Shown here: positions 6,791-56,684 of the stretch, one piece after another
Numbering within the stretch: the stretch's first letter is position 1
Layout of the letters: each line of letters starts with the position of its first letter
From: Psammoneis japonica
Taxonomy: Eukaryota
Length of the DNA: 64,000 nt
Reading direction: 5' to 3'
NCBI GenBank assembly: GCA_008632985.1
Contig: QPGO01000203.1
Span: 1-64,000 of the forward strand
The notes under the pieces: model-generated
What the model saw: the letters and a program-made list of their open reading frames with translations, nothing else
What the model was told of the DNA's origin: nothing
The model's database searches: none
Position numbers and translations under genes: made by a program

Positions 6791-7980
6791 TAGGCCGTCG
6801 TGCAGAAAAAATTACCGAGGCGCTGCTGCAGTCAGCACAAGCAGTAGTTGCTCGTAATATTTAGAGACGAGAGCAACCTCGTCTGCCCTTTATTTCGGGA
6901 CTTTCCCAAAAGTGGTAGATTGTAGAGTGCACCATGAACAAGAGTATTCAGTGTTCCGCTCCCATGTGTTGTACCCCCCATGATACTTCTAACATAGTCA
7001 CTCCAAGAGACACTGTATCTCCTTAAGTCGTTCTCCATGTATTGGTGTCCATTTTTTTTTTCGCGCTATCGTCGTCGTCGTCATCCTCAAGTCGACACCG
7101 GCATCACTCTTGCTTTAAGCAAAAAACAACCCGGGTCCTACCCTGGCTAACTCAAAAAGCTTCTTTATTTCTTGTAGAAAACGGAAAAAAGATTAAAGCA
7201 AAACAAGAGGTTGAGAAAACCAAAATATACATGAAATCAACACTCCGTCAAACACCGTGGAGTGATGCACTCACTGAGAATGTGAGAATAAAGAAGCACA
7301 ATGCGGGGGGCAGAGAATGATTTCATTTTTTTACTGCCATGAATTAGGGTTCAGATTGACGATAATAGGTGCAATGGTATCAACGTAAAATCGATAATGC
7401 TCATTTTCGGCGGCGACGGCCATTGTTGTAGATGCTTCCGTGTTGAACGGCAAACGGCCGTTTCCACGTGTCCTACTCGTAATGTCGGGTGCGCAATGTG
7501 ATGCTGTACAAGCGTCTGTGCTCCTGATGAGATTGCACAGCATGTGGCGCATCGCCACCGTAGCTGTGAGCGAGCTAGAGTGAGCGAGCCACTACGTGAA
7601 ACAGGAGTCGCCAGCTAGAACCGCAGGCCTGGCATGTTGACGTCACACGCACATCTTGCACCACAAGATTGTGTGCAAAACCTCTTCTCGCGACGTCATC
7701 ACCATCCACAATTTTGCGCGACGAGCAGAAGGAGTTTTTTGTGGGCGACCATGATGAGTGCGCAACGATTCTGGTGGCAAAGTCCAGTGAGCTCATTGTC
7801 GACGGGACACAGACCTTTTTTCTTTTCAAGTTCAATGGACAGACTGGGCGACAACCAGAATTTGGGTGAAATGATCTCTCAATTTTTTGCCTGCAGCTGC
7901 CATTGGAGTGACAGTGTTCGCCATGTTCTTTTCATGTGCCTTGTGATTCGCGGCCGCAAGGGCAGGAGCTGCCACACCCA

Positions 7981-8395
7981 ATGAGAATCAAAGGGCCATT
8001 GAAGCAGCTCCCTGGGGCAGGACGTGACAAAAAATCAAAGTTCTCGTCCTTCGCCAACCTCAAAAACAAGTGGGTGCCTGTTCATTTGGACACCAGCACA
8101 CTTGCACTTGTTTGTGCTGTTCGGCACCATGAGAAATTCTGTGCTGGGAACTTTGCTCCTTCGCTGCAGGAGTTTCACAAGACGGTGGTGTTTTTGCACT
8201 CGATTCTCAAGTGGGACATCAAGCTGGTTTTTGATGGGGTTCCGCCAAAAGAGAAGGAAGCAGAGCATGCACGTCAGTGTGCTGGTGAGAGTGGGAATGC
8301 TGCTCCCTGGATTCCAGCTCTGTTCATTGCAATGTGGGCCAAAACATGTGATCGACACTGCACTCCTTTTGTGATGGCACTGCTGGAAGTTGCCG
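7981..8395 (+). pseudogene. Decayed XPG/FEN1/EXO1-like PIN nuclease domain, truncated
   Basis: MRIKGPLKQL (cf. MGIKGLL), VHLDTS, LVFDGVPPKEKEAEHAR (XPG-N motif) and PFVMALLEVA (cf. PYVVAPYEAD). Confidence 0.7.
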
Positions 8396-8449
8396 GTGGT
8401 GTTGCCAACACCAAAGAAAAAGGCAAGACAGACCCACTCTGTGGCTCAT

Positions 8450-14059: not shown

Positions 14060-14625
14060 GGAATCTTGGAAATTTTCGATTTTTAAAAATCCATGTGTGA
14101 CTCGCGCTCGTGGATTTTCAGAAATGCAGATTTTAAAAATTCCCGATGTCTTTTTTCGAAAACAGACGATCCTTGTTTCAGAAAATGACGCAATTTCGTA
14201 AATCTCCCCTTTTCATCATTGAAAATGTGCGAATGCCTTGTTCTCTGCACGCTGACTCGAATTGCGGCACCTCGTCAAAGGCGGGCTGCCAGAATCGCCT
14301 CTTGTGCCAGCATGGGGCAGAGCGGGCGGGCGGGAGAGAAATCAGCATTGTCGACAGAGGGACAACAACGGAAAAACAAAGGCTCGCAACGCGGTGAAGC
14401 AATGCTGTTGCTTCGGTGTTTGTTGGTTGTTTGATCTCAAATTGCACAAATGACATGACCGTTGGGAAAGTCAAAATGACTGTCAACAAATTGGCGCGAC
14501 TTTCCATTCTTTAAGAATCCATCAACTGCGACATTTTTAAAAATCAACGTTCTGGGAAATGCGGATTTTTAAAAATGGAGATTTCCGGGAATGCGGATTT
14601 TTAAAAATGGAGATTTCCGAAATTC
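14060..14625. repeat. Cluster of short motifs, probably TE subterminal repeats
   Basis: ATTTTTAAAAAT recurs; ATGCGGATTTTTAAAAATGGAGATTTCCG is tandemly duplicated at ~14559-14619. Confidence 0.6.
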
Positions 14626-14639
14626 CGCGCAACAGATCC

Positions 14640-16790
14640 ACAAAAACTGACATGACGCATTGACACAGTGACACAATCGCGCTGCGGCATCAGTGAGCAT
14701 GCTCAGTCTCATGCCATTCTGATGCACCTCTCACACTCTGCTCAAGCTGCCTTCTTCTGCAGGAATTCCGCAGCCTCCTTCATGGCTGCGTGGAGAGTCT
14801 TGAAGTCATCGCGACTGCCGACGATTGTAAAGAGCTCCAGCCCTCGCGGACTGACCGTGTCAAACTGGTGCAGAGTGAGTTTTGTCTTCTGACAGTTTTC
14901 AGATCCACTCCTGATCTTGCTGATTTCCATTCCTTTCAAAGAAGCACTGTGGAAAGGGAAGATCAACCGTTCCATGTCTTCGTCATCAGGCTGGATGACG
15001 ATGCAGAAGGCTCCAACCTTTGGCTCATGCTCAAAGAATGACGTGCTGTGATCGGCATGAAGAAAGCCTCCACCAGGTGAGTTGACGCTGGTGCGACGGA
15101 CCACCACATCACTGCGTGAACAAACGAAACGACATGTTGGTGTTTCCATCTTGTTCTTGGCTCTTGCTCATCTTTCGTTTGCAGACAGTGCAGATTGCAA
15201 GCAACAGCAGACAGCGAGTTTCTCGTGTTGAAGATTGCCAACGTCACACTGCCTCAAAAAATCAAAGCGCTCATGTGGGAATGACTCTTTCTGCGAAAAG
15301 CAACACCATCACCATCCCGAACCACAAAGTCCCTGGGCGATGCTGTCGCGTAATTTTTTTTGGAGCAAGGGGCATTGACTGTGGATTGCGTCATGTGTCG
15401 AATGCTGTAGATGCCGTGGATGAAGAGGATGGGAGTGACTGTGACGAGACTTCTGACCCCAGTGAATCAGTTGGAGAAGCCAAGGCCAATGAGGTTTCGG
15501 GGGAAGCCGATGACGAGAGCAATGAGAGTGAAGTGGATTGTGGTTTGTCCCAAGATTTTCAGTTCTAACGACGATGAAGAGAGCAACAAGAGTGAATTCG
15601 ATTGTGCCACATTTTGACCCAAGACTTTCTCCATTCTAACAAAATGCGATCCCGGCATGATTGTGTTGTGACCAGCTTGTGCCAACCCGGCATGACAATG
15701 TCGTGACCAGTTTGTTCTTTCTCTGGCCAATGAGTGACTTCTTCTTCCTGTTGGCAACAGACAGTTTCGTTTTTGTCGCCAGTTTCATCACCTTGTCTTC
15801 TTCTGCGGCGTCAGGAAACATTGTCTTGAACTTTCTAAGAACCGACGCAGGCACAATGCTCCCACCGCAGTCCCCAACAATTGCTGCCACTGCTTTTGCG
15901 TGCTCGTGGGAGAGGGCGTTCTCCTGCATTTCAAGCCCAAGATTGTTGAGACGAGCGGCTCTTCCATTCTTCTTTTTTTTTGAACATGCCTGGCTGATGA
16001 AAGACTGAACTTCCGTGAAGCTTGGCAATGTGCAGTCACCTGGATGCGCTCATTTCAGCACGTCAAGCATTGCGGACGGCCCCATCTTCTTGTCCTTGTC
16101 AGTGCTTCCTTGTTGACAGAGGCCAAAATGCCCAACACTTCATCATCAGATGACATGCGGGTCGTCAACGCACTCCAAGTGTCGAAGAATCCACGTGGAA
16201 GAAGGCGTCAAACAAGAGGTCGGATTGAGGAAATGCAAACAGCTGCTGACTCTCACCTGTGCCAGGACTGACCCTGTCTGTCGTGATGTTCTCGTCCCTT
16301 CTTCCTCTGCCTGATCACCATGCACCATGACCTGTCACCAGAACAGACGAACAAAGCATGCAATCATTGACATCAACAGTGTGACAATCAAAATGGCGAC
16401 ACGCAGCGACGGGAAATGGCGCGCCATTGTCTCATGCCGGTGCATTGTTGAGTTACATTGTTGGACAAGATTTCAACCAAAACATGCAACAGATTCCAGC
16501 CACACATCTGCATGGTGACGGTGACGAGTTCCAGTGAAAAGGGGACAAGAGAAGAGTGCATGTGATGCTGCAAGAATGTGCTGCAGCGTGCAGCGTCTGA
16601 GGGAGATGAAACATCACAGTTGCGTTTGATGCGGCACAGGGCTGCCGGCACATGACACATGATGTGATGGCTGTCGTCGTGCATCGCAGTGCAAAGCAAT
16701 TTGAGTGCGTCGTACAGACATCTGCGTTTCTGCATGTGTGATGTAAAAGTCGAATGAGTCATTTTGTCTCACTTTTGCCTTTGCGCGGGC
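14640..16790. other. TpA-depleted hypermutated tract of unidentified origin
   Basis: Very few TA dinucleotides; overlapping ORFs in many frames that are Tyr-free and Cys/His-rich. Confidence 0.8.
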
Positions 16791-21231: not shown

Positions 21232-21599
21232 ATTTGCGCCAGAGCGGTTTGTGACTTGCGTGAAGATTGAATAATTGCACAAAGCGAAGGAGTTGTCCCG
21301 AGTAGTACTGGTAATGGCTGCTGCTAACTACTACAAGTCGGTATTGTGGCAATGGATGACCTGCAGGGTGGCACCGGTGGGGCCTATGACTTCCATGTAA
21401 ATAGGGTTCGTGTTTTTTCCCGTCGTGTCAGGTATGTCTATCGCAGTGTGGTTGACGACGATTGATGGGCGGATTTTTTGGCGACCCGAATGAAGCAAGG
21501 AATTCGAACCTCGAACCGCGTGAAAAGCACCAAAAAACGCGGAACGAGCTCTCATTCGCGAAGGTTGACAACAGAGAACAACAGTGAACCAGCAGCCTC

Positions 21600-23500
21600 A
21601 AATTAAGGAACATTTCAACTGATTTGAAATTGAGGAGCAAAATTCTGGGTCACTCGAGTGTTCAGAGTTCACACAGATGAAACAATGTCGGCCGGACTGT
21701 GCAGTGGAGCAGCTCTGATGGAAGACCTCCTCTGGCGACACATGCCTCAACTTTGTTTCTCTTGTCCCCTTGAGTTGAGACAGCCCCTGCAAATGAGTCA
21801 TTGTGCTGTTGCTTTTTTCTGATCATTGCACAAAAAGAACTCAGCATTTGCCCTCCACAACTGAGCCTTTGCAAATGCCGGCACACTCCTGCTGTTGCAG
21901 CTGCGCACCTCGCTTTGAGTCAAAAAGGCGCCAAGTGTGCAAGTCTCAACTGATTGAACAATCCATTTTTGTGCAGAATGTCTGGTTCATGGGGCTGGCT
22001 GCCATTGTGATGCCATGACAGGATGCCACCACCAGATGAGTGGCGGTGCCTCAACTTTGAGATGGCGGCAAAGTGCCTTTGGGAGCATGCCCAAAAATGG
22101 TGTGTCACGATGTTGCCTGCTGTGAAAGCTGCAGACATGTTCCAGCACCAGGCAGGACTCCTTGTGATGACATGGGCCCTCAGAGCTCTGCATGTGAGCT
22201 TTGCAGCTTGTGCGTTGGGCAATGTGAGCGCATGTTTGTCTTTGATCATGTCCAAGAAATGACCGAGTTTGCACAGCGCAGTTGCAACTCTTCACCCTCG
22301 CAATTTTTGAAAACGTGCCAATGCCACTGCACCACTCTGCAGACATTTGAGAGAGGGAATTTGCACAACAAAATGTCAAAAGTTTGTTTGGTGGGTGGCA
22401 AAACAATTGCACCACAAAACAGTGCAAAAAATGCTGCCAAAAAGTCGCTGTTTTTCAAATGGCTTGGGACTTTGCAGCTTTCCTGCACTTCACTTTTGCA
22501 TCATTTTTTGTGGTGCCTCTGAGCACCCACCCCAAAATGCTTGTGAGCATGCCCAGCCTCCCCCAGCCCCAGCAGGGCCACCAGGCCCACAATGTGCAAA
22601 CTGCAATCATCAGCCTTCAAACGCCAATTGTGAGATTTTGTGCCATTGTCACACGCTCAACAAGCTGCTGTTTTTTTTTCCAAAATTGCACTCTTTGTGG
22701 CAGGAGACAAGCTGCGACTTTTCATGAAATGCTCAGCTGGCATTTGACAGGGGGGGGGGCTGTGGACATGCCTCTGCCTTCACCAAGCCAAAGATCACCA
22801 CACAAATGGTCACAAACATCATCCATGCATTCTGTGATGTCTTGCAAATGGACAAAGCCAGCCTCTTCTTTCAGGGTCTGTCATTTTGTCTCTCTTTTCC
22901 CCATCATGCCAGGTGCTGCATCAGCTGGCATGATCAGCCGCTCCTGCTGACAGAGATTTTGGAACCTGCAGTTTGCTGTTTGCTGGACATGTGGATTGTG
23001 GGTTTAGATTCTCCTGCACATGGTGCAAGGAGCATGGTTGATGCAAAATGAACCCAACAAGTGAAAGCCATCGGGTCATTTCTCCCTTCAGAGGTGTGAC
23101 AGTCACCAGCGTGGGGCCCTGCGGTGCAACATGGCTTGTGCGACACCATTGGGTGAGGCTGAATTTGGTGTGGGAATGGGTGCATTCCAGGCAACAATGA
23201 GATTGAAGCTGGGAACCTCCTTGTTTTGGGGTGAATTTTAGAAATTTCAGATGAAAAACTGCCAAAATGAGACAGTGTTTTTCGCGCATGCGTGCAACTC
23301 ATGGAAAAACGTTCAAAAGGCTTGAGCACGAATGCTGAGCTCACCGTGCAAACAACACGACAATGGCCGAAATGCCGTTCGTTGAGCGCAATGTGGGCAA
23401 GGCGGCCTCCAACTTTCTTCACAAGTTTGTTGCCCATGTCAAATGCGACACACTGTGAAAAAAGTTGGAGGCTGCCCCACTCAGTTTTCAAGAACGAATG
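21600..23500. other. TpA-depleted hypermutated tract flanking the gypsy element (unidentified decayed sequence)
   Basis: Almost no TA; strong TG/CA excess; ORFs open in all frames and lacking Tyr. Confidence 0.8.
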
Positions 23501-23527
23501 GCGTTTCGGCCATTGTCGTGTTGTTTG

Positions 23528-23682
23528 TGCAGCACGCCGCCCCAAGATCCATGATTTGCACTTGCAGATGTCTTCTGATGTCGCTCATCCGATGATGCAA
23601 GCAATGAGTCAGATCCATTCTCTAGAAGATCAATGAGTGGTCTAACCACAAAGCTCACTTTTTTCTCGTCAACTGATTGACG
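23528..23682 (+). repeat. 5' LTR
   Basis: Direct repeat of 28750-28904; starts with TG. Confidence 0.9.
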
Positions 23683-26600
23683 TCACACCAGCTCAGTGCA
23701 CAGTGAATTCACTTCACACGTTTTTTCACAATGACTTCCAACGATGCTACGATGCCTTCCTTTGAACTCACCGGACAGTGGGAAACTCTGAAATGCTTCA
23801 AGGGCCCTGCTGAGAAGTTTGAAGTTTGAGACATCCCAAATGACATCCACAGTGGAGCGCACGAAAAGAAAGTGACATCTTTCAGTGGCGAGTGTGGAGA
23901 TGACAGTTGACCCCCATTTCTCATGTGATTTCTTCTTGAGACAGGTGCAGCAGATCTTTGACTGCAAGCCCTGCAAAGCAGGCCCGCCCAAGTTCAGCGT
24001 CTTTTCTGCTTGCCTCGTCGGTGCAGCGAAGACCAACTGGGAGCAAGCACATCAGGAATTTGAAGATCCGGCACTGGAGACAGAAGACATGTTCCAAGCC
24101 ATCCTTGAGACATTCAAGTCATGTCACTTTGAGAGCAACATGCCTTGATGTGACCAGATTGAGCATCTGAAGACCGTCAAGAAACCATCCAGAGCAATGT
24201 GTGAACAGCTCATCTTGGCGACAGATGGCATGACAACTGACCTTCAGCAGTTTCCGCTGGACGTCGACACCAAAGGTGAGGCGCTAGACACGCAGCCCAC
24301 TTTGACAGACAATGATTGTGTCAACATGCTCATCAAGAGCGCACCGTAAGCCTGGCATGACAAACTCATGGCTGACGGCATGAACCCTTGAGAACTTGCC
24401 AAAAAGGACTTGAAAGAGCAATTCCACTGCATGGAAAGGGCGGAGAAGCGCAAGGACAGATGCAACAAGCATTCCAACGATCGCCGTCATGGAAGCGACG
24501 ACCACGACAATGAGAAGAATGACCACAAGGCATCTCACAAGGGAATGTCTGGATGCAAGATTCCCTGGAAACCCAAGTGCTGCAACTTTTGCAAAAAGTC
24601 CAGGCACAATGACCAGGAGTGCAGTCACCCAGGACATCCACATCATGAGAAAGTGTCCTTCAAACGTGATGACCGAGACAAACACGACCGCCGCGATGAG
24701 GATTGGAGTGACCGTTGCCGCAAGCGCAACTGTCACATCTCCGACGACAAATCGGATCGATCATGCTGCTCCTTGAGCGATGAATCCTCAGACTGCAATG
24801 TGACGGACGAGCACGCAAGATCCGCCGTTCTGAGAAACAAAACAGAAAATGTGAGTCCAGCAGCGAACAATCTGATGACTGCTGGTTCAACTGCTTGCAA
24901 GACAAAACAGATCACGTGAAAGTGGAGCGTGGGAATGCCGCTGTCACGAGAATTTTTTTACATCCAATCAGGCCAATTGGCGCCAAAATTGCAAAGAAAA
25001 AGCACAAAACGGCAGCATCAGCAGCAACTGCACTGCCAGAGGACGACTCTGTTGCTGGGTCAAGTGCTCCAACATTGTTGGATTCTGGGAGTTCTGCTTC
25101 CCTGATCCACCAATCTCAAGCACCAAGGAGATTTTGGCAGAAAGTCAAATCTGCCAGTTTCAACGCCAAAACCGGCGAGTTCACATGTCATTGTAGAGTC
25201 GCACATGACATTGCTTTGCCAGAACTGTCAACATCAAAGACCCCCCGATGGTCTTTTTGTGCTGACGAGACCAAGGACAAGACTCATGGCTCAATTCTCG
25301 GAAGCAACTGTCTGGAAGAACTTGAGATTCATTTATCGCATTCATCCAAAACTGTTCAGTGGGGTGATTCATGGGCTCCTGTGCAAAGCCATGATGAAAT
25401 GAAGCCTGGCTCAGAAGCCAAAGAAGCATTCTGGCAGATGCAGTCAGACGAGAACGACATCCACGTGAGCAAAATTTTAAAAGATGCCACTTTGCGCGCG
25501 ACCAAAATCCTGGGTGCTAAATGTGAAAAAGCAGATCTGGACAAGAGAGTTGACGAGTGCTCTGCACTCGATGGAAAACAAAGAAAAAACTGTTGAAAGT
25601 GCCAAAAAGCCATGGGACGCTCTTTGACGGCACTCCACTCAAGTTCGACTGTGAACCAGCCAACTTGCACATGAAACCGGGCAAAGACATGCTGTTTCAC
25701 GTGAAACAAGCATTCAGCGTGCCTCAAATTCACAAGGACACTCTGCCAAAAGAGCTCCAAAGATTGGAATCTGTCGGAGTTCTCAAGAGGAACAACAGCA
25801 GCAGACATGCCCACCCTGCTTTCATTGTCCCCAAGAAAAATGGTGCAGCCCGCTTCATTTCTGACTTCAGAAAATTGAGTGCAAGACTGAGACGCAAACC
25901 ATGTCCACGCCTCCGACAATGCAAGAGCCGCCACAAAACCCACAAGGGTTCAAGCATGCTGCTTCTTTAGACCCAAACATGGGTCGCCATGCTGTCAGGC
26001 TCACACCTCAAGCACAAGAGATGTGTGCTGTTGCCCCGCGGGGGAAGCGCAGCTGTCAATGCCTGCCAATGGGAGCAGCACCGGTGTCAGATTTTTTTCA
26101 ACTGAAAATGATGCAGCTGATGCAAGGAATGGAGGACCTCATTCACACTCACCCAGATGACCTCCTTCTGATGGGCCAGGGCTCCTTTGAAGAGCACCTC
26201 AACCAACTCCAACAAGTCTTGGACCAGCTGCAACAAGCCGGGCTCAAATTCAACACTGCAAGATCAAAATTCTTTGCCGCCGAGATCAAACACCTTGGTT
26301 TCTGGCTGACTGGGGAAGGCACAAAACCTGCAAAAGAGAAAGCAAAAGCAACAGATGAGATCAAGCGACAAGAAACACAAAAAAACTTCACCGATTCATC
26401 GGCACAGTCAATTTTTATCGCAACATGTGGCGATCACGATCACACTCACTCGCACCACTGTCAGAGCTGACATCCAGCAAGAAAAAGAAAAAGCTGAACT
26501 GGCTCCCAACACATGAGAGAGCCTTTCAAGCAGCAAAAGACGTGCTGAAGCAGGACGTTGTGCTTGCGCACCCTGACTTCTCCAAAAAATTCACCACTCA

Positions 26601-27594
26601 TGTCGACGCGAGTGATTTTCAACTCAGCACCATCATGTCCCAAGAGGGCAAGCCGATTGCTTGTCTCAGCAGAAAGCTGAACAAAGCCCAAAGAAACTGT
26701 GCTGCTGCTGAAAGAGAACTGCTCTCCATTGCAGAGTGTCTGCGACAGTGCAGAAACATCTTGTCATGACACGAAATTGAAATTTTTGCAGATCATGTCA
26801 ACCTCACTTACAAAACGGTGTCATCAGTGCGTGTGCATCGCTGGCGCCCATTTGTGGAAGAGTTCGGACCCACCTTGACGTTTGTGAAGGGAGAGGAAAA
26901 TGTTGCGGCCAACGCACTGAGCCGGCTGGACAAGAAGAAACCAGCTGAGACAGTTGAAGGCCTTGATGGCAGCGTGCACCAAAAATCCAAGCAGCCGGAG
27001 CAAACTGCGCAATCTGAGCAGCTCTTTGTCCAAACCCGAACTCAAAAGAAGAGAAAACTGACTGTGAAAGCCAAAGCCCTTGCAGATGAGGCTCTGCCGC
27101 AATCCCAGTCAGCCCACAAATGCAGGCGCCTGGAGAAAAAAGAGGAGACAACTCCCGCTGATGGCTCACCCATCAGCCACAAGACAATCGCAAAATGTCA
27201 ATGGAAAGATGCAAAAACATGTGAGAAGCCAGAAACAGACAGCAATTGCACGGTCAGAAAAGTGGGCGAGAACAACGTCATGTTTTTCAACGGCAACCAA
27301 ATGCCGATGCCGTGACCACTCAGAAAACCAATCGTGGATTGGCGCTGTGTGAATCTCTGCCATCCTGGAACGGGTCAGACAGAAGAAACAATGCGAAGAA
27401 ATTTTACATGGAAGAACACATGCGAAGAAGTACAAGACCGTGTGACACATTGCGGTGAGTGTCAACGGCTCAAGAAAAACACAAAGAAATGTGGCCATCT
27501 TCCTGCCAAAGCAGCAGAACATCATCCATGGTGCAAATTGTGCACAGATCTCATCAGTCCTCACAAAGTGTGGACCATTGATGGCAAAAGACGG

Positions 27595-27973
27595 GCTCCA
27601 GAGCTGGGTGGGACTTTTTGTGACATTGGGCCCGCAGAATTCTACATGCAAGCTCCGCATTATGAGGGTTCAATTGATGGCCATTTTTGTCTTCAACATC
27701 AAATGAACGACCAAGTTTGTGGTGCAATTGTGGCCATTGCCGCTTGACGTTTTTGCAAATGCGCCTGCCCCGCACAATTCTCAAGACATTTGAGAATCGC
27801 GCCACAAAAAAAATGTCAAAAGTTGTTGGACGGATCGCTCAACAAGTGCACCACAAAATGATGCAAAATTTTAGAAAAGTCACGTGCCTTTCCATGTGCG
27901 CGACATGCGGCGCGATCCAAAAAACCATCGATGTCACAGTTCAGCAGTGCGAGGTCCCACCCAGAGCTGGAGC
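27595..27973. mobile_element. MITE inserted in the gypsy integrase
   Basis: Imperfect TIRs GCTCCAG..TGGGTGGGAC / GTCCCACCCA..CTGGAGC. It interrupts the integrase between IDGKR and IKIHELKALTM, and is related to 51452-51840. Confidence 0.8.
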
Positions 27974-28749
27974 GCATCAAAATTCACGAGCTAAAAGCCC
28001 TCACCATGACAGACCCAGCTGCGTCATGGTTCGAAATCAAAGAAATGTCCGATGCTGGTGGCGAGACGGCAGCATTGACAGTCAACCAAGAATGGCTCTG
28101 TCGCTGTCCCTGTCCTTGTCAGATCACTTGTGATCAGGGTGGTGAGTTTGCAGGCCAAGAATTCCAAGAGCTTTTGCAGTCTTGTGGGATCAAAGCAACA
28201 GCAGCTTCTGGCCGCAACCCGCAGGCAAGTGGCATCATTGAGCACACTCACCTTGCTCTGCACAATGTGCTCCGCACATTTGACTTGCAAATGCAGGCGC
28301 TAGATCCAACTGATCCTTGGTCTGGCCATTTGGTCAATGTGGCCCATGCAACAAAAGAAGCACCTGCCACACCACACTCCAAGCCACTCCAGCAGAACTG
28401 GTCTTTGGACGTGATGTGATTTTTGACAGAAAACCCAGCGCCAATTGGGGCCAGATCCGGCGGCGAAAGCAACGTCTGATCAACCTCAACAACAAGCACA
28501 AAAACCAAAAATGAATCGCCCATCAACGCCGAGTGGGCGACTGTGTGCCATGTGAATGACGCTCCGGACACAAGCACGAAGGGCATCGCGACGGCCCGTG
28601 CGATGTCATCGAAGTCTGCTCCAGCGGCGTGGCGCGGATCCAAGCTGGTCGCAGGATCAAAGAATGAGCTTAACACCCATCTCTTTTGCATCCTTGCAAC
28701 TTGCTTGCAAAACCCGCCATTGACCTTGCCATGCCCTTGGGGAAGCGAG

Positions 28750-28904
28750 TGCAGCGCGCCTCCCTAAGATCCACAATTTGCACTTGCAGATGTCTTCTGA
28801 TGTCGCTCATCCGATGATGTAAAAGCGATGAGTCAGATCTGTTCTCTAGAAGATCGATGAGTGGTCTAACCACAAAGCTCACTTTTTCTCATCAACTGAT
28901 TCAC
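28750..28904 (+). repeat. 3' LTR
   Basis: Direct repeat of 23528-23682, preceded by the polypurine tract. Confidence 0.9.
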
Positions 28905-33600: not shown

Positions 33601-34329
33601 TGCCGGACCCTTTTGATGTGTTGTCATGTAGGACATGTCTGATGCTGAGAACGCATAATTACCGGGGAAATTGCATCCGGAGAGACGCCAATGCCGAAAC
33701 ACCTGACGGCAAACGCAAAGAAAAAAACACTGAGGCTGTAAGTCTAAATTGTACATTTTCTCCATTACCCACAGTGCTACTGAACTTTACTTACCATCAT
33801 AAATGAAGAAGACAATGTAAATGAAAAAGGAAGCATTGGGTCGAGGTGTTACTGCTCTGCTTTCCAAAGAGAGCTGTCTGAAGTGCTGTTGATGTATCGT
33901 GTTGTTGTGTGTGTTTTTGGCGAGCGAATCGTTTTTCGCCCCACAAAATTTCTCTCAGGTACAGCACATCGTGACAAATCTTCAGTGGACGATCTACGCG
34001 CGTGAGCCACCTCATCGTTTTGTCGTTCGTGCGTTGCACGCGGGCGACAACAGACGATTTATGCACCTCTGGCCGCCCCTCCCCCTGTATTGTTGAGCAA
34101 AGTGATTTGACAACCGTATCTTACTGGCTGTACCACGTTCAGACGCTCCAAATACATAGCATCACGTCGTCACGTCTGCTCTTGGCGCCGTTCACGCGTC
34201 GTCAATCTCAATTGACTCATCCAGATCAAGTTGTCGACGGTCATTGTCCACACCCATGAACGACAGTTGCGATCAGCACAGCGTTCGATAGTCTTTCCGT
34301 TTCCTGATTGACTACCGAGTACCAACAAA

Positions 34330-45919: not shown

Positions 45920-48900
45920 TGCGATTGTTTATGTATTTGGAAGGGTTGGCAAGAGCGGAGTTGAGAAACAACAATAATAACATCGACAACAACAGAAAGT
46001 CAAGCCACGTCTCGTTTGAAAATGACTGCGCGACGACGTACGTACGACGTTGGAGGGAGAACATGCCATGAATGCGCGCGGAGTCATTGATACCTTTTAG
46101 TCTTCTGAGCCTTTGGAGATTGCTCAGAGCGCGCGCGCACGCACGCACGCACGCAGCAGGGGAGTGTGACGTAAGCGACGAAGTAAAAATGTCGAATTTT
46201 TCATGCCGACTTGTATTGTGACAACGGCGTTGTGCGTTGTGTGTTTTTGCTTGCTGCTGTCCAGCGCGAACCGAGAAAAAGAGAAAGGTGAGGACCACAA
46301 TGAACTTCCTTTTACAGTTTGTTTGTTGCAGCAGTGATCTGTCCTCTCGGCTTTGTCTTTGCTGATGGAGAGGAAATGATTGTGCCCAAAACTCGCCTTC
46401 GGAGCCTTGGGGGCTCATTGAGAACTTGCCCGTCATGCAAAGGGCGCTTGTGTGAAATGTTGTGGTTGACCAAGAGCTTTTTTGAAAGTTTGTTTTGTCA
46501 TCCACCTGACAAATGCCTCAACGACCCAGAATGGACTCTGAACTCCCCGAAGGACTGCGCGGCGTGTGTCTCGTCTTTGAGAATCACAGGGCATGGTCGC
46601 ATGGAGATGAGGAATTTGGAGATGTCTTTGGTGACCCTGCCAGACAAAAACTTTGTGCCAACATTGCCCTTCAGAAAAGTTTTGCGCCAAGATGGATCAT
46701 GAGTGCAAAAGAGCAGACTGCTTGCAAGGAGATCTTTGCCCTTGTGAAAGTCTTGCGTGCGGGAGTGGCTTTGACATTCATGCTTTGGGGGCTTGTTGTG
46801 AAATGCTTGGAAATCTTGAAAATTTGCACCAAGGCCGTCAACTGGGTGATGAAGACATTTTGCATTGAGGGGTGCAAGCCACACAATTTCATGTGCTGCG
46901 AATGTCCGAGCGTGTGCCCTCCAAAGCCTGAGAAGAAAAGGGGTCATTGCAACATTTATGAAGGGATTGCCCAACAGGCCACATTGCTCAAAAGATGCCC
47001 CAAATCAAACCAAATCTGTTGGGAGCCCTGCTTTGAGTTGATGCCAGGAAGTGGCACATGGAAACTGCAGGGTTCAAGTGCGCTGATGCCTGTGAAACCC
47101 ATGTCATGAACAACAGTGGCTGCTTCATTCAACAGTGTCTCCCTCCTCCTGTTTCTCCTCCTGCGCTCTAGAGCAGTTGTTGTGACCAGAGATCTTCTTG
47201 CATGTTGCACAGAAGCATTTAATTTGTCAGGATTGAAGTGACGGAGTTGCAACTGCCCTTCGTTTTAAATCAGTCAGCCCTCATCGCCAAACCAACCCAT
47301 CAGGCAATCTCACAACTCATGCTTGCAAAGCAGTGATTCCTTGATTGACGTGAGGTTGCTGTCATTTTTCTGGTCATGACCAAATTTTGCAGCAATGTGT
47401 GTGTCCTGAAATGCAGCAAGCTCCAAACAGCTTGCCTGACAAACTGTGCTGAGAAAACCACGTGTGAAAAACAGAACGAGTGCAGCACAGTGTGCACTGG
47501 TGTCAAATTGGAGTTGCTCTGAATGCCAAGAGTTGTCATTGAAACTCTGACATTCAAAAGCTGCCAACACAGGAGAGCTTTATTTTGTGGGGCTTTGGGT
47601 TGTCACCCTGTTGCTTGCTCAAAGTTGGTGCTGCAAGACGTCAACTCAATTCCAGCTTTTGCCATCGCCGCAATGTGGAGAACATTTCTGCAGCCCTTGA
47701 TCTCTCATGACAATGTTTTTTCATTTGGTCATGCAAGAGGGAGGGGGGCTTCCATTCAAAGTCAAAGCAAGCCACAAGAAGCAGACCAAAGAGACACACA
47801 CATGCACTCTTTTTCTGCACAGTCAGAATGGTTGCAGTTTTTTGTTTGATGAAAACCAGGCTTCTGACATTTTCTTTCTGTCTCTAGAGAAGGCTCGCTC
47901 ATGGTGGTGACAGTTGGAGTGGAGGCAGTCAATCCTGCAGAGGAAGACTGCAGATGTGTCCAGCTGAAAAGAAAGCTCCCGATGACACACAGGACGAGAG
48001 AACGTGTGAAGCAACATGATGGAGGCACACGCAAGATTCAATCTAGAGCCAAGCTTGTTCAGCTGTGACTTGTTTCCTGGTTGCATCCCCTGCTGCTTGC
48101 ACCTTAACCATGTCCAGTCTCGTGCCGCTGCCAGCATTGTTTTCTTTGCATTTTGCTGGGTGCAGGTGTTGTGTGCAGGAGCCACTGCAACTGTCATTTG
48201 TGTGGCTTTCAGCACTCCTTTCACTTCTTGATGCCATTCTCTCCTCATCAGAATTTGATCTCTTTGATGTTGGCTTGCACCATTTCATGTGAGCTGCCAT
48301 GCATGTTTGGGCATTTCTGTGAACTTGGGCATTTCCTCATGTGCACTTGCCATTGTCACAACACTGCACTTGGACCTGCAAACAATCCACAACCACCACA
48401 ATTTGCAATCATTTGCAAACTCATGTCTTAGACTCCTTGGTTTTGTGTGACAAAATCACAAAGCAGCACTGGTTTCTGCAGGAATGTTGGTGGCCACTCT
48501 GTCCAGGCACGTGATGCACCAGAGGTTCATCAAAAGAGCAAACCTGGGTCCAGCGCACTTTTGCCTTGGGAGGAGAAAACTGTGTGATGAAAAATTTCTA
48601 GTTTTGCAGCCCATTGTTGGTTGCCACAAGTTCCTTTTGAAAGTTGTGAATGAAACAACTCATGTTGCAGCATGGCAACAAGACATGTTCTGAGTTGCAA
48701 AATCATTGCAAAAGGTTCAAGTCTCATTTCAAAAACTCAGCTCAAGAACTGCTGTTTCTCAGTTGTGTGTGTCTTGCTGAAAAAATGTCAGCAATGTGAG
48801 AACTGTTTCTCAATTGTTTGTGTTGCTGACATTTCTCTGATGGTGACAGAGTTGCGCCAACTCCTGTTGACAAGCCGACACACAAGCTGCCCTCCTCCTT

Positions 48901-49190
48901 GGCCATGAGAAGTGGGGCAGTTGGTGCTGGGCCTGTCAAACATGATGAATGAGCAGATTCTCACTCCACAGCTGAAGCATTTTGGCAATGCTGCATCCCA
49001 GTTGATCCTTTTGTCATGGTCAGCTGCCAGAGTTCTTGTCACAGTTGTCAGATCACAGTGGGAGAAAAAGGCAGATGATGAAATTTCTGTGACATCAGTT
49101 TGAGACATGCCCACTTGGCTCCAGCACCAATCTGTGGTCTGCAGGCACTTGCAAAGAGCAGTGCACAATTCAAAAATGAAAAAGACCCCG

Positions 49191-50073
49191 GCATTGTTGT
49201 CCACAGACAGTCTTGTCCAAGACACACAGGACGGTGTTGTGTGGATGACTTGCTTTTTCTGCCACCACCAACAACAATGACAATGAGGGCAATGCACAGT
49301 TGTTTGATGATGACAGCATCTTGACTGAGAATGACAGCCAAAGCAGAAGCAGCAGCCGCCATCAACCTGCAATGCCTTCTGAGAAACAAACAATGCTGCA
49401 ACAAGAACGCAACACAGCAACAACAATGTCAGTTGGTCCATTCATGATGACAACTTGTTGAATGAACCAAAAACAGTCACCAACAAAAAAGGAAATTAAA
49501 AATGTTCCAGATGACTTGACCAGACAATTGACCACATGTGCACAATCCCTTCTGCTGGTGCTGTTGTTGATGAGTGTCTGACTTGAGGCAGCAAGGGGTG
49601 CAGAACACACCTGAGCATGCTGAAAAACTCCTTCAATGCTGTCAGCAATGACCACAGCTGCAAGCACACACACTGGAAATGGAGTTGCTGGGCATGGAAT
49701 GTGTTGTGGTGCTGTTGGACAAAATGATGTGAAGGTTCTTGCAGAAAAACAAGATGTTTTGTGGTGCTTGGAATTGCCAGACTTGATTGTCACTCCGCGG
49801 GCCAACCAAACCTCACTGCCAGATGTGTTGGCTGTCCCCCAATGGGTCATGATTTGATGATTCAGCCACAACACATGGTGACAACCAAGGAGGCCACATT
49901 GTGTTGATTTGCAGTTCTTTTGGCCAAGAAAAGTGTGAGGTGAGCCTGTGAGTTGGCAACTCTCTGTTGCCCAATGCCCCCATTGTGATGGCTTGGCTGC
50001 ACTTGGTGATTGACTTTATGGTGTCGTGACTCCATCACTTTAACACAGGCAACAAGATGTGGAGCTCGCGGAG
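49191..50073 (+). pseudogene. Hypermutated copy of the 5' half of gene 54690-56684
   Basis: Colinear with ~54690-55562, sharing e.g. CAAAGCAGAAGCAGCAG, GACTTGAC.AGACAATTGACC and GATTTGATGATTCAGCCACAA. Confidence 0.93.
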
Positions 50074-51451
50074 CCTTTTTGACTCACTTGAAAAGGTGGC
50101 AAGACAGTCTTTTCAACTCACTTAAAAAGGTTCTTATTTTGCAACCTTTTTGACTCACTTGAAAAGGCAGCAAGACAAACTTTTCAACTGGTGGGACAGT
50201 CTCTGCTGGGCCCATCAAACATGATGGGGGTGCATCATTTGCACAGTCAAGCAAGCAAGCAAATTCTCCCTTGTGGAGCAGCAACGACACACTGTGTTCT
50301 CCTTGTTTTGTCATGGACAAGTTGGCTGCTGCCCAGCACACATGCATGAGAAGTTCAAGCGCTTTGTCACCCAGTGGTGTGGCATGAGTGACAGACGGGG
50401 TTTTGTTGGAAAACTGGGTCATGCAGGCAGGCAACGGCAGGGGTGTTGGAGATGGAGCAGCAAGCTGAGCCTTGAGTTTGGTTGTGTGTCTTGCAAGTTG
50501 GTTGGCCAGAGATTTTGCAACCGCAAGACTCAGGCTTTGGAAACCCCACTGGGATGGTGGTGCAAAGGCATGACAAGGATTGTGGCCAAAGCAGGAGGAA
50601 GGAACTTTTTGCCATGCAGCTGAGGCAGCAGGGAAAAGTCTGGAAGGAGACATTTTTGCACACATGTGTGCATCCCAAGCAGCTGCATGCAGAAAGGATG
50701 ATGCGACACTTGTCAGATGCACAGCTCTGCACTTGGTTTGTCCTCAGGCACCTGCGGTTGTGTCACCCCAGCTGCTGCTCTTGGGTTGTGCACCACAAAC
50801 AGCAGCCCACACAAGACAAAGCAGCACGAGATTTGCAGTTGTCCAATGTTGGAACTTTCCACATTGTTTTCATGGGGGCATTGCCAATGTTGGTCGTGGT
50901 GCTGAGAAATGTTTTTGGTTGCTGACACTTCTCAGATGGTGACTCAGATTTGCATCAACTCATCCTGTCCAGCATGACAAACAAGCAGACCTCATCTCTG
51001 GTCATGAGAAATGGGGTTCCAAGTCCACCAGGCATGATGAAAGCACACTCTTCACTCAGCCGTGCAACCAAGTGGGTTCTCCTTCCATTGTTGAAGCAGG
51101 GCAACAGGGCCTGATGCGTTGTCATTGACCCAGTTTGTCTCATCATGCAATTGTTTTGTCATGGTGCCAAACAGGAGAAAAGCAGATGACAAAGATTTTT
51201 GCAACATTGCTGTGGCGTCTCCCCTCAATTGCAGGGCGGCAGTTGGACCCAAAAACAACACTGGGCTGTGTTGTGGCATGCTCACATTCTGATGTTGAGA
51301 TCAGACAAAATGGGGTGGATTGTGCAACAGCTCCAATCAACTGGCTTGCTGAGGTCACCCTGGTCCAGTGTGAGAAAAGAGGGCACTTGCGGTGGTGGGT
51401 GGGGACATTCCCAGCCTGCCAAAACAAGGCACCGAACTGCGTGGTTTGATG

Positions 51452-51840
51452 CATTCCAGACGCAGGTGGGAATCCGTGTGACATTGGGCCCGCAGAATTC
51501 TGCGTGCGAGCTCTGCAGCAAAATTGTGCGGCAATTAGAATGTCAATGATCGCCAACAGAATGTGAGGCAATTTTGCGAACGCACAAACTTGCCCATGAT
51601 TGAAGCACATCATTTTTTGCTTGGCCAGCTGCATTCTTCAGACATTGAAGAATGTGACTGGCACGTTGTTGTTTCCACAAATTCGCCATGTAAAACGTCT
51701 GGGGCTTCGCAAAACAGCGAGTCTGGACAATTTTTTTTTAAATGTCACATGTAGAAATAAACGTGCGAAACATGCAACGGATGGTGAAAATTGTTTGTGT
51801 CACACGTCAGTGCTGCGAGCTCCCACCTGGGGCTGGAACG
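51452..51840. mobile_element. MITE related to 27595-27973
   Basis: TIRs CATTCCAG..CAGGTGGGA / TCCCACCTG..CTGGAACG; shared internal GTGACATTGGGCCCGCAGAATTCT. Confidence 0.8.
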
Positions 51841-52767
51841 CGTCGGTTTTTGCACTCTCTGGCAAGACAAGTCAGAAGTGACAAGAGCAGCACAGAGGCA
51901 CAATGCACAATTGGCTTGGCTCATGGAATCTCTCTGGATCCAAGACAATGGCTGATTTGTCATGGCATTGCGGGCTGGTCAAGATGAGCAAGCCCGACCA
52001 CTGCACTGACTGTTGGCACCATGTGCAGCTTGTGGGCAATTGTGTTGTGTGTTGTCAGTTGTCAGCCCATGTCGGGTCGATGCAACTGATCCCATCATCA
52101 CTGGCACCCAGTCTGCCAAACACAATGAAAGGAGCTGGGGCAACCTGCCTGACCCATGTGTGGGCACCTCTCGTCGTCATCCGTGGTCTGTCTCCTCCCT
52201 GCACGCCACTGTCGCATCGCTCGCTCGCGCCGCGTGCGTGGTGACTCATCCGAATAGCTCGGCCGATGACACGCGTGTGATGACCCGCAGCTTTGGGTGA
52301 CACGTGACACCCCAGAAGAATTCTGCGAGCCAGGAGCCGTTAAAAATGAGCGGGAAATCACGGAAGTTCCCGAAATGAAGACTGAAGTTGTGGGGGTTGG
52401 TCGCGACTTGGTCGCGACTTGGTCGCGGAAAGTCTTGAATGAATCGTGAGGCAGAAAAATTTAGCTTTTGGAACTTTCCAAACTGTTCGAAGTTCCCGAA
52501 AGAATCGAAGCCTTAGCCTTGGTGTTTTGAAATGAAACGGTTTGATTGGTTTGCGTTTGTGTGAACAATGATGGGTCGCGGCAAGTCTTGAATGAGTCGT
52601 GTCGCGGAGCTTGTCTGTAGAAAGTCAACACATTCCTACGATGAGTGTTTAGTCTTGACTCCGATGATCCACAATGAGAAAGGAATTTTTTCAATTGAAA
52701 CAGCTCTTACAAAGGATTCGTAGTTTATTGCTCGTAACTTTATCTGACAAGAGCAATCGTCAATGCC

Positions 52768-53938: not shown

Positions 53939-54689
53939 GTATCAAAGAAGAAGGGTGCAGGTTTGAATGCGTCCAGGGACTCGGTTTCTCACCCGCTCAT
54001 TGATGATAGATACGCATTCACAAGCTCTCGGTCCCACCGGCTCTCAGCGTCTCAAGTAAGGTCAGTCAGCTCTGTGTCTTAGCAAGCTAGGTACTCTCCA
54101 TACTCAATGAGAGATTTGTGCATTACTCGAATGAAAAGTGTTTGATTCGAGGTGGCCTAAGAGTCCATGTTTGCATCAATGTCGTCCTCTTCGTAGGGAG
54201 AAGAAGAGATTATCTTCATAACCCAAGGGCCAACAATGCTTCTGGAAAAAGCATGGTTGCCTCGCGTCTTTGGGAATAGCCGCGTCGGCTACTTGTACGC
54301 GTCACCGACGTCGGTGACGGTGTGCCGCTGACATTTCTCTGATGGCGATGACGATGACTCAAAGAGTTGCATCAACTCCCTGTATCGATGACAAACAAGC
54401 CAGCCTCCTTCTGGGTCCAACCGGATTCTACCTTACTTGGTCATTGGTGCAGTGGTTAATACACTTCGTCCTCGTCGCTGGTGATCATTTCGTCATGGTT
54501 CCTCATGTTGAATGTCACCGCTCACCGTTCAAATTTTTGGCGGCAGACGGGAGAAAGGCGGACGCTGTGACATCATTGTGACGTCTCGCCGTCTCGCCCG
54601 CCCGCCCGCTCGCCCACCGATGTCGAAGGGGGCGTGCGTCGCGTCGCGAGCGACGCAAAAAACAGCACACGCACAACAAAACATACACC

Positions 54690-56684
54690 ATGGCGTCGTC
54701 CACAGACGATCTCGTAGTCCAAGACGGATGGGACGATGACGTAGATGACTTGCTTTCCACCAATGACGACAACAATGACAACGACGGTGACGATGCATGG
54801 TCGTTTGATGACGACAGTCTGTTGACAGAGAATAACAATCAAAGCAGAAGCAGCAGTCATCATCAACCTACAACGCCTTCTTCTGAGAAACAAAACGATA
54901 CTACGACTACACAACACAGCAACGATAATGACAATAATTGGTCCTTTCACGACGACGACTTGTTGAATACACCAAAACAACAGTCACCAATGAAAAACGA
55001 AACTAAAAATACTCCAGACGACTTGACAAGACAATTGACCGCATACGTACAATCCCTTCCGTTGGTGCTGTCGTCGATGAATGCCTTACTCGAGGCGGAA
55101 TACAACACACCCGAGCATGCTGCGGAACTCCTTTTGTACTATCAAGAACGACCACAGCTACAAGCGTATACACTGGAAACGGAATTACCGCGCATGGACT
55201 ATGTCGTGGTATTGGACGACGATGTGACGGTTCTTACCGAAAAGCAAGACGTTTTGCGGCACTTGTCCGATGATTCGATTGTCGTTCGGTGTGCCAATCA
55301 ATCCTTACTACCGGATGTGTTGGCCGTCTTGACGGGTCACGATTTGATGATTCAGCCACAATACATGGCGACAACCAAGGCAACATCGTGTCGATTTACA
55401 ATTTATGCCGAGAAAAGTGTGAATTGTGCCTGTGAGTTGGCCATTCTCTTACCCAATGCCCACGGTGAACCCTATCCGGTGGCTCGGTTGCATGTGGCGA
55501 TTGATTTCAATGTTGTTACACCATCACTTCAATACAGGTTGCAAGACGTGGAGCTCGTGGAGTTACCCAACTCGTCTCTACAAGGCACGGCGCAGTTTTT
55601 AAACGAGTTTGCCATGCACCACGACAACCAATTGCCAGCATCACCGCCACGTCAAGAAAAAGCCAGTGTGGACTTTCGCGATGCCTTTGTTTTGGAATTG
55701 TGGGATGCACCCAAACAATTTGTCAAGGGCACGAGCACGGGCTTGACGGCTGCTTTGAAACAGGTGGACGCGGTGGCCAATGTATCCAACAAGGTGAATT
55801 TCCTCACCAGCAGCTCATTGCTACCCACGGCGGAACAATTGCATCATGTAGCCGACATGACAACCATGACGACAAATAATAATCATGTCGAGACGACGAT
55901 GGATAGTACTGGCATTGACACTGAACCAGCCACAAGCAACAATGCAGAGGCGATGAACCGACCCAAACCAATCTTGGGTGGATTGTTAATGTCGGGATTG
56001 ACGCGATTGGCCAAGCATGTAACACTTCCCGAAGAAGAGGAGGGACTCTATAACAATGTACAGCAACAACAGCCCCAGCAAGAATCATCGGCTGCATTCC
56101 CAAAGTTGTATCGAAGTCAAGAGGCGCCGCCACCACCACCAGCAGCTAGGGAACGTGCTGCTGCTCCAAAGCTGTATCGCAAAGACCAGCCACCGCCACC
56201 GCCCAGCCGGGAGTCTGCTGCTACAGTTCCAAAGTTGTATCGCAAAGACCCGCCACCGCCACCAAGCAAGGATGATTCTTCGGCATCTGCTATACCCAAG
56301 CTCTACCGCAAGGATCCGCCACCGCCACCACCACCACGCAGTGGGGAAACCGCACCTAAACTTTATCGAAAAGATCCACCATCAGCTCGTCCACCGCCAC
56401 CGCCACCCCCACCGCCACGACGATCCAAACGAGATCACAATCGTCCACCACCGCCAACTCCACCAAGAAGTGGCAATAGCCGTTACCGTGGTCCATCATC
56501 GCCTAATGCTAGTATTCCTCCAACCAAGAAACAACAACAGCCGACCGGGGCCGAGTTACGCAAGGCTATAGAGTTGGAAAACATTTCGACCGAACCCTAC
56601 AATCCAGACGACGACATTATTCCAACACGAAAGAGATGGGTCAATCCGCGCTTTAGGACAACAACTACTACGTCATTGCAATGA
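54690..56684 (+). CDS. Hypothetical 664-aa protein with acidic Trp motifs and Pro-rich PKLYRKD repeats
   Basis: Long intact ORF; five PKLYR(K/S) repeats, each followed by polyproline. Confidence 0.85.
   Translation: MASSTDDLVVQDGWDDDVDDLLSTNDDNNDNDGDDAWSFDDDSLLTENNNQSRSSSHHQPTTPSSEKQNDTTTTQHSNDNDNNWSFHDDDLLNTPKQQSPMKNETKNTPDDLTRQLTAYVQSLPLVLSSMNALLEAEYNTPEHAAELLLYYQERPQLQAYTLETELPRMDYVVVLDDDVTVLTEKQDVLRHLSDDSIVVRCANQSLLPDVLAVLTGHDLMIQPQYMATTKATSCRFTIYAEKSVNCACELAILLPNAHGEPYPVARLHVAIDFNVVTPSLQYRLQDVELVELPNSSLQGTAQFLNEFAMHHDNQLPASPPRQEKASVDFRDAFVLELWDAPKQFVKGTSTGLTAALKQVDAVANVSNKVNFLTSSSLLPTAEQLHHVADMTTMTTNNNHVETTMDSTGIDTEPATSNNAEAMNRPKPILGGLLMSGLTRLAKHVTLPEEEEGLYNNVQQQQPQQESSAAFPKLYRSQEAPPPPPAARERAAAPKLYRKDQPPPPPSRESAATVPKLYRKDPPPPPSKDDSSASAIPKLYRKDPPPPPPPRSGETAPKLYRKDPPSARPPPPPPPPPRRSKRDHNRPPPPTPPRSGNSRYRGPSSPNASIPPTKKQQQPTGAELRKAIELENISTEPYNPDDDIIPTRKRWVNPRFRTTTTTSLQ

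Follow-up and report, generated by a model that had tools for sequence, protein, structure and literature searches.

Repeat-induced point mutation (RIP) of fungi proceeds by C>T changes that create TpA dinucleotides and stop codons and lower the G+C content, and its recognition of homology leads to mutation of both copies. In a recent preprint on Bigelowiella natans, giant-virus and virophage DNA integrated in the genome was described as undergoing hypermutation specific to TpA (Mettrop et al., bioRxiv 10.64898/2026.01.13.699255). According to its main text, the mutation rate of two such viral regions is ~1000-fold that of the remaining genome; the changes arise de novo in some mutation-accumulation lines only, and 210/211 and 20/20 of them are A>G/T>C, all at TpA. 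Clusters of that genome that are depleted of TpA and enriched in CpA and TpG are also enriched for DDE and reverse-transcriptase domains, and an ADAT2-like protein was proposed as the editor (bioRxiv 10.64898/2026.01.13.699255). In a word search of the same main text, diatoms, CpG and a trinucleotide or downstream context did not come up. We describe herein a decayed duplicate of part of a gene, and the TA-free tract in which it lies, in Psammoneis japonica (NCBI GenBank assembly GCA_008632985.1, contig QPGO01000203.1, positions 1 to 64,000 of the forward strand; this whole stretch of 64,000 nucleotides is called the window).

Cytosine methylation of diatom transposons is documented (PMC9998398, PMC2806351), and in Phaeodactylum tricornutum transposable elements (TEs) are methylated in the CpG context by DNMT5a (PMC9998398). 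Literature searches for a TpA-erasing signature in diatoms yielded no report, and word searches within PMC2806351, PMC4504042, PMC6604790, PMC9998398 and bioRxiv 10.1101/2025.10.24.684338 yielded no passage on it. An earlier model-made reading of the window, prepared without database searches (the sequence-only reading), had taken 49191-50073 for a decayed copy of a neighbouring host gene in which TA and CG had become TG or CA, while the source copy was untouched. As set out below, the locus most likely exemplifies, in a diatom, the TpA-specific hypermutation of targeted regions described for B. natans, with ordinary CpG decay superimposed on it.

The decayed duplicate and its source

The features compared are as follows.

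48818..50073, + strand: decayed partial duplicate, codons 1-291 of 54690-56684 and ~370 bp upstream of them
49191..50073, + strand: part of the duplicate homologous to coding sequence, with the coordinates of the sequence-only reading
54322..55562, + strand: source segment of the duplication, of ordinary composition
54690..56684, + strand: intact host gene, 664 amino acids, no Pfam family

In a BLASTN comparison, 54655-55562 and 49151-50073 were 73.4% identical over 947 columns. Purine/pyrimidine seeds and transition-tolerant alignment placed 48819-48849 opposite 54321-54351, in line with the diagonal of the coding match, and the homology starts at 54322, which is 368 bp upstream of the ATG. 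The coordinates given earlier are therefore right for the coding part, up to 50073, but begin too late, as the homology sets in at ~48818 (corresponding to 54322) and not at 49191. At the 3' end, the last codon represented in the duplicate is 291 (55562), short of the end of the coding sequence, and no run of A follows it. Because the homology takes in ~370 bp upstream of the ATG, 48818-50073 is a DNA-level segmental duplicate of the adjacent gene, comprising the promoter region and the 5' third of the coding sequence. A processed pseudogene (retrocopy) is ruled out by this upstream start, by the end within the coding sequence and by the lack of poly(A).

Aligned codons 133, 154, 235, 246 and 281 of the copy are stops, of which two arose by CGA>TGA, two by transversions and one by C>T. 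With stops in all three frames, 20 indels (neutral scoring) and 38-46 transversions, depending on the alignment, the copy is indeed not very recent, as had been proposed.

Substitution spectrum of the copy

The coding core (54690-55562 against 49191-50073) was compared in two alignments, with transition-tolerant and with neutral scoring. The former gave 848 aligned positions (675 identical, 135 transitions and 38 transversions) and 64 gap columns; the latter gave 846 aligned positions, 79.4% of them identical, with 128 transitions, 46 transversions and 20 indels. The four pairs of blocks quoted in the sequence-only reading are each present once, at 55037/49530, 55152/49652, 55360/49870 and 54864/49363.

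With transition-tolerant scoring, the 31 TA sites of the intact gene correspond in the copy to TG at 19, CA at 7 and another sequence at 4, with 1 kept; the 57 CG sites correspond to TG at 33, CA at 14 and another sequence at 8, with 2 kept. A total of 26 TA and 47 CG sites of the coding part thus became TG or CA, while TG and CA themselves were retained at 53/68 and 57/70 sites, respectively. Neutral scoring gave much the same picture (TA 1/34 kept, CG 2/59 kept). At the per-site difference of 0.204, the probability of keeping at most 1/31 TA is 1.7e-12, and that of keeping at most 2/57 CG is 6.8e-22. CG/TA sites take up 184 of the aligned positions and contain 77 of the 135 transitions, compared with 58 in the remaining 664 (odds ratio 7.5, p 2e-23). 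The strong enrichment of transitions at TA, the lack of which would have refuted the sequence-only reading by its own terms, is evident from the 5' neighbours of A>G changes: 27/65 after T, 26/141 after A, 16/166 after C and 10/139 after G.

The source segment contains 32 TA/kb and 77 CG/kb, and the copy 2.4 TA/kb and 8.8 CG/kb. The rest of the host gene and five other open reading frames (ORFs) have densities like those of the source segment (25-34 TA/kb, 49-72 CG/kb), which bears out the claim that only one of the two copies was affected. Both losses are saturated in this pair, from which direction and context, but not relative rates, can be read. GC-biased gene conversion was ruled out as a cause, for A>G is low at N-A-R (16/218) and CG was lost.

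Ancestral state

The changes were polarised at the protein level with 25 homologs of the host protein (28-42% identity) for want of a close DNA ortholog, the best protein homolog being 42% identical. Ninety-two aligned codons differ in amino acid, and the homologs are informative at 88 of them, favouring the intact gene at 81 and the copy at 6, with 1 tie. Among codons changed at TA alone, 15/15 favour the intact gene, and among those changed at CG alone, 28/29. Seven Tyr codons (TAY; Y denotes a pyrimidine) are now TGY or CAY; at six of these, 21-25 of the 25 homologs have Tyr, and at the seventh, 12/25. Judged by these protein comparisons, the intact gene is in the ancestral state. The 81/88 informative codons thus agree with the polarity assumed by the sequence-only reading (TA and CG ancestral, TG and CA derived) and rule out TG/CA as the ancestral state. 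The copy is a valid natural control, as that reading had proposed.

TA-free tracts of the window

Tracts were defined from TA counts per kb and per 250 bp, and "outside" denotes the remaining 46,146 bp of the window.

7750..9750, no strand: tract with its right border within a PiggyBac-like ORF; 2 TA in 2001 bp
14150..16750, no strand: TA-poor tract; TA 0.13 and CG 0.875 of outside density
21500..28750, no strand: tract with a gypsy-like long terminal repeat (LTR) retroelement; protease, reverse transcriptase and integrase in order
46250..52250, no strand: tract holding the copy; 21 TA and 107 CG in 6001 bp

Together, the four tracts contain 61 TA in 17,854 bp (3.4/kb), where 724 would be expected at the outside density (1871 in 46,146 bp, 40.6/kb). 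CG is at 31.4/kb in the tracts and 55.4/kb outside, and the G+C content is 0.484-0.506 against 0.475. The tract borders are sharp, within ~100-500 bp.

The last TAs flanking the tract of the copy are 46214/46313 on the left and 51758/52255 on the right. This tract reaches ~2.5 kb to the left and ~2.2 kb to the right of the duplicated segment and ends ~300 bp from the start of the gene at 44117-45928, and the intact host gene lies 2 kb outside its border. The tract is continuous and the host gene has no TE domain, in keeping with the earlier statement that non-TE sequence is affected when it lies inside the tract. A contig rebuilt from a public sequencing run, possibly of the assembly's own sample, aligns over 45500-51477 without gaps and differs at 5 letters; all 5 are transitions, 2 of them at CpG. 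The depth of 45500-51477 (mean word depth 67) is that of single-copy DNA. The gene 2 kb outside is untouched, most of the tract is single-copy, and the ends of the tract do not coincide with those of the duplication; we infer from this that targeting follows location, presumably a chromatin or silencing state, and not sequence homology.

Further features were recognized in the same tract.

50779..51234, + strand: second, shorter decayed copy of the upstream part; score 183.5 against at most 63.5 in 20 shuffles
51454..51850, no strand: fragment akin to part of the LTR retroelement (27.5-28.0 kb); TA depleted, CG near normal

The second copy is nearer to the first (48688-49124) than to the intact locus. 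A ~71-bp repeat with hairpin-like ends, seen with purine/pyrimidine seeds only, directly follows the end of the first copy (50072-50107 and 50143-50178), and a short match between 50206-50236 and 51019-51049 suggests one more piece of the upstream element. Small duplications lie nested in the 46-52 kb tract; Tandem Repeats Finder reported nothing relevant in 46-52.5 kb. Among 14 ORFs of the tract, no credible Pfam match and no TE protein domain were found. At 51260-52027, the summed contig depth reaches ~26,000-92,000 against ~60-70 in the flanks, so this part is a very high-copy repeat; it is related to the region that precedes the integrase of the LTR element at 27.5-28.0 kb. The related stretches 27490-27988 and 51350-51854 are 59% identical, which is too poor for counting independent changes.

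The retroelement in 21500-28750 carries LTR-like repeats at 23527-23684 and 28749-28907 that are identical at 144/157 aligned positions, with 2 transversions. For one ORF of the tract at 14150-16750, no Pfam match was found; this tract may, from its composition, be a young or unmethylated target. Many ORFs of 150-270 amino acids occur on both strands of the tracts 7750-9750, 21500-28750 and 46250-52250; these are probably spurious, and owe their length to the erasure of TAA and TAG stops.

A transposase ORF across a tract border

A second internal control is provided by the following ORF.

8788-11112, + strand: PiggyBac-like transposase ORF, open over 774 codons, with its first 40% in a TA-free tract

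The tract border, at ~nt 9789 and graded over ~300 bp to ~10100, cuts the DDE domain of this ORF. There is no Tyr in the first 392 residues and 18 thereafter. At columns where at least half of 21 homologs have Tyr, the ORF keeps 0/8 before the border (5 Cys, 1 His, 1 Phe and 1 Lys in their place) and 7/12 after it, and His and Cys at such columns continue to about residue 440. A border inside one gene therefore again indicates targeting by place.

One PiggyBac homolog, P0157, likewise has Cys or His in place of Tyr. The best 150 matches from a profile search of 1.84 billion representatives were combined with the earlier homologs and the window ORF itself; in this set, 113 rows cover at least 6 of 16 conserved-Tyr columns, these columns being defined on 20 of the rows. 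Tyr-poor relatives (at most 30% Tyr and at least 30% Cys plus His at the columns) number 5/112, namely P0157, P0233, P0248, P0250 and P0265, and four of the five have an overall Tyr content of 0.2-1.1%. They were drawn from ENA, NCBI, JGI/IMG and Logan records and are known from protein alone. Cys or His at Tyr columns is the protein scar that TA>TG/CA would be expected to leave, and these five relatives may serve as a lead in this respect. Among 80 loci of PiggyBac relatives from metagenomes, which do not include the DNA of P0157, no TA desert was found (0/80); the lowest observed/expected ratio of TA was 0.51, and the longest TA-free gap was 477 bp.

Sequence context of TA and CG loss

The loss of TA depends on the flanking bases. 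Tract-wide, surviving TA relative to the outside density is 0.47 in TTAA, 0.23 in CTAA/TTAG and 0.21 in CTAG; mixed classes are at 0-0.12, and survival is poorest in ATAT (0), ATAC/GTAT (0) and GTAC (0.035). In the pair, A>G occurred at 16/28 TAC, 7/16 TAT, 3/12 TAA and 1/9 TAG, and G was the worst of the 3' neighbours (N-A-G, 5/78). These data fit a rule by which, on either strand, A>G takes place at T-A-Y; its equivalent is T>C at R-T-A (R denotes a purine). YTAY went to TG 10 times and to CA once, and the self-complementary RTAY went to TG 7 times and to CA 5 times; the excess of TG over CA at TA in the copy is thus due to the flanking bases.

The loss of CG behaves differently. In the tracts at 7750-9750, 14150-16750, 21500-28750 and 46250-52250, TA stands at 0.025, 0.13, 0.08 and 0.09 of the outside density, whereas CG stands at 0.63, 0.875, 0.64 and 0.32, respectively. 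Moreover, in 51500-52250, which is part of the fourth tract, TA is lost while CG is normal. Survival of CG by flank, taken tract-wide, is 0.96 in GCGC, 0.81 in GCGA, 0.76 in CCGC, 0.37 in CCGA and 0.26 in TCGA, a dependence that fits spontaneous deamination. Several of the 80 PiggyBac-relative loci mentioned above have CG observed/expected ratios of 0.13-0.30 with raised TG/CA. Since TA loss is uniform across the tracts and CG loss is variable, and since TE relatives lose CG without a TA desert, the base composition suggests that TA is probably lost by a process of its own, faster and carried to completion, and CG by a slower, ordinary decay. The single mutation spectrum of the sequence-only reading thus holds insofar as TA and CG both went to TG or CA, but it probably combines two processes.

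Neighbourhood of the host gene

The host gene has homologs in diatom-like sequences, and no intron was seen in it. The core of its protein, at about residues 110-290, is strongly conserved across the homologs; a comparison with the ESM Atlas gave no usable match. Within the gene, 56046-56473 (+) contains internal direct repeats of ~62% identity at the DNA level; their translation is a repeat rich in proline (PKLYRKDPPPPP-like), located within the C-terminal third of the protein. On the other side of the tract lies the gene mentioned above.

44117-45928, minus strand: acetyl-CoA transporter ORF, long and intron-free

The named best matches of this transporter are in the pennate diatoms Nitzschia and Cylindrotheca (60-64% identity), ahead of the centric Thalassiosira group (53-58%), in keeping with a pennate-diatom-like stramenopile. 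Long ORFs without introns are found in the window generally. In public sequencing runs, the sequence of the window was found in one sample of one study, for which no RNA run is listed.

A ~130-bp segment occurs at 29242-29372 and, in inverted orientation, at 33952-34072. Both places are outside the tracts, with TA and CG intact, and the pair was therefore dismissed as an extra control; to judge from the sequence, the segment is possibly a regulatory or promoter element common to both places. A tandem array is suggested by several direct matches at the purine/pyrimidine level within 296-977, close to the left end of the window.

Proposed mechanism and alternatives

In the reading that we favour, with a probability of roughly 0.8, the duplicate lies inside a 6-kb island that has undergone region-targeted TpA hypermutation and CpG decay. 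The duplicated segment became part of the island at 46250-52250, where region-targeted A:T>G:C transitions would erase TpA to near completion. The favoured site would be A in 5'-T-A-Y on either strand (or, equivalently, T in R-T-A), with TG or CA as the outcome set by the flanks. A slower CpG>TpG/CpA decay would accompany this, most likely by deamination of 5-methylcytosine in DNA that is presumed to be methylated. As to the chemistry of TpA erasure, the best candidate appears to be an enzyme that deaminates adenine in DNA to inosine, which is read as G. An ADAT2/TadA-like deaminase is one example, favoured since in every natural substrate of these enzymes A34 is preceded by U33; the main alternative would be a mutagenic modification of T at TpA. 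By the genetic code, TA>TG/CA cannot create a stop codon: TAA>TGA replaces one stop by another, and TAG and TAA are removed. For that reason, TA loss alone is a poor gene-killer.

Several points weigh against this reading. Saturation means that the pair alone can neither separate two processes nor yield rates. CG went to TG more often than to CA (33:14, p 0.008; 14:5 in symmetric flanks, p 0.06), for which we offer no explanation. A>G is raised at A-A-T in the pair (13/40), yet AAT/ATT is hardly depleted tract-wide (0.90). The comparison among tracts assumes that their original TA and CG content was like that of the rest of the window, and the one sign of a TE origin of the 46-52 kb tract is a high-copy fragment.

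The same pattern could come about with no editing enzyme, as the slow by-product of a mutagenic base modification (such as oxidised T at TpA) or of a repair defect in silent chromatin. T>C at R-T-A and A>G at T-A-Y are mirror images, and the base under attack can therefore not be read from the sequence; an absence of new stops, with its poor effect on genes, would be natural for a by-product, and a border graded over ~300 bp in the PiggyBac-like ORF is what a spreading chromatin state would produce. We nonetheless consider this explanation unlikely, as the LTR-like pair differs by 2 transversions in 157 positions and yet TA is almost gone from the element, and as the B. natans signature, by the account in the preprint's main text, comes in bursts and in some lines only, which suggests a regulated activity. 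Smaller still is the chance we allow to a single RIP-like machine, or a deaminase of dual specificity, that mutates both CpG and TpA. TA and CG were erased to an equal degree in the copy, within a shared left tract border, and TG outnumbers CA on the + strand for both; moreover, deamination of both A and C in DNA has been reported for ADAT2-type enzymes (PMC10354150; bioRxiv 10.64898/2026.01.13.699255). What speaks against one machine is that the two losses are uncoupled, in 14150-16750 (TA 0.13, CG 0.875) as in 51500-52250 (TA lost, CG normal), that related TE loci show CpG decay with no TA loss, and that the B. natans process, with its 210/211 and 20/20 A>G/T>C changes in the main text, lacks a G:C>A:T component.

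Two further explanations bear on the level at which the letters changed. ADAR-like A-to-I hyperediting of RNA, fixed by reverse transcription so that the copy would be a retrocopy, could account for the order T>A>C>G of 5' neighbours at A>G, which resembles the ADAR preference, a point also found in the main text of the preprint (bioRxiv 10.64898/2026.01.13.699255). It is very improbable here, given that the copy holds ~370 bp from upstream of the ATG, that the tract runs on over unrelated sequences and that its counterpart at 7750-9750 has a border cutting the ORF of a DNA transposon. The 3' side also disagrees: ADARs favour a 3' G, whereas a pyrimidine is preferred here and G is worst (N-A-G 5/78, TAG 1/9). 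ADARs are not known from outside the animals. Hardly credible is a sequencing or assembly artefact, in which modified bases were miscalled and the TG and CA letters are unreal. Some long-read basecallers are known to miscall modified bases systematically, but the contig from the public run, at a mean word depth of 67, matches 45500-51477 with 5 differing letters and no gaps, and the copy carries 38-46 transversions and 20 indels besides.

If the favoured reading is true, regional hypermutation specific to TpA would be known from two lineages, this one being the first that is diatom-like; the 2026 preprint on B. natans is the one other description found. The copy and the half-affected transposase ORF offer polarised, base-by-base evidence that host sequence is converted once inside a tract, and together they distinguish place from homology as the basis of targeting. 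With the T-A-Y flank rule there is a concrete specificity against which candidate enzymes can be tested. In practice, the spurious ORFs and Tyr-free "proteins" of such tracts mislead gene prediction and TE annotation, and the tracts distort inferences of methylation from dinucleotides and CpG. Should the Tyr>Cys/His scar in 5/112 PiggyBac relatives be confirmed as such, the system would be widespread and overlooked. It is a tentative idea, which we hold to be somewhat less probable than its negation, that diatoms and Bigelowiella share a genome defence in which adenines of DNA are edited at T-A-Y within silenced islands until no TpA is left, and which is aimed by chromatin state and not by recognition of repeats, is old and spread through the SAR group (stramenopiles, alveolates and Rhizaria), is independent of RIP, and possibly uses an ADAT2/TadA-like enzyme.

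Comparison with known systems

The locus shares with fungal RIP the dense, context-specific transitions, the sharply bounded tracts that hold transposons, and the ruin of a duplicated gene fragment. Unlike RIP, TpA is here destroyed, changes at TA make no stops, and the G+C content is not lowered (0.484-0.506 against 0.475); one of two copies is affected, and so is single-copy DNA. In direction of change, G+C content and treatment of both copies, the tracts thus differ from RIP; the last of these differences had been pointed out in the sequence-only reading.

CpG decay driven by methylation resembles the second component of the tracts, with its CG>TG/CA changes in TE islands, its variation with age and its slower course in G+C-rich flanks. 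Such decay leaves TpA untouched, however, and related loci with CpG decay keep normal TA. Animal APOBEC and ADAR editing is also a hypermutation by deamination directed against foreign or repeated sequences, and the 5' order T>A>C>G is ADAR-like. The present process differs from it in acting at the DNA level, in covering DNA transposons and promoter sequence, in disfavouring a 3' G and in targeting A and not C.

The closest likeness is to B. natans. In both cases, going by the preprint's main text, A>G/T>C changes occur at TpA, are confined to regions while the rest is normal, and can affect single-copy DNA, and TpA is depleted, with CpA and TpG enriched, in regions with transposase or reverse-transcriptase genes. 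The host here is a diatom-like stramenopile and there a chlorarachniophyte; the targets here are gypsy-like and PiggyBac-like elements and a fragment of a host gene, whereas viral integrants are the targets described there. TA loss is near complete here (0.03-0.13 of outside), compared with 3.3% against 6.0% of dinucleotides in the figures of that text, and a 3' pyrimidine preference is seen here. Loss of CpG is superimposed here, 47/57 CG having become TG or CA, and is attributed to a second process. Finally, the mutations reported for B. natans arise de novo, whereas the window preserves the fossil record alone.

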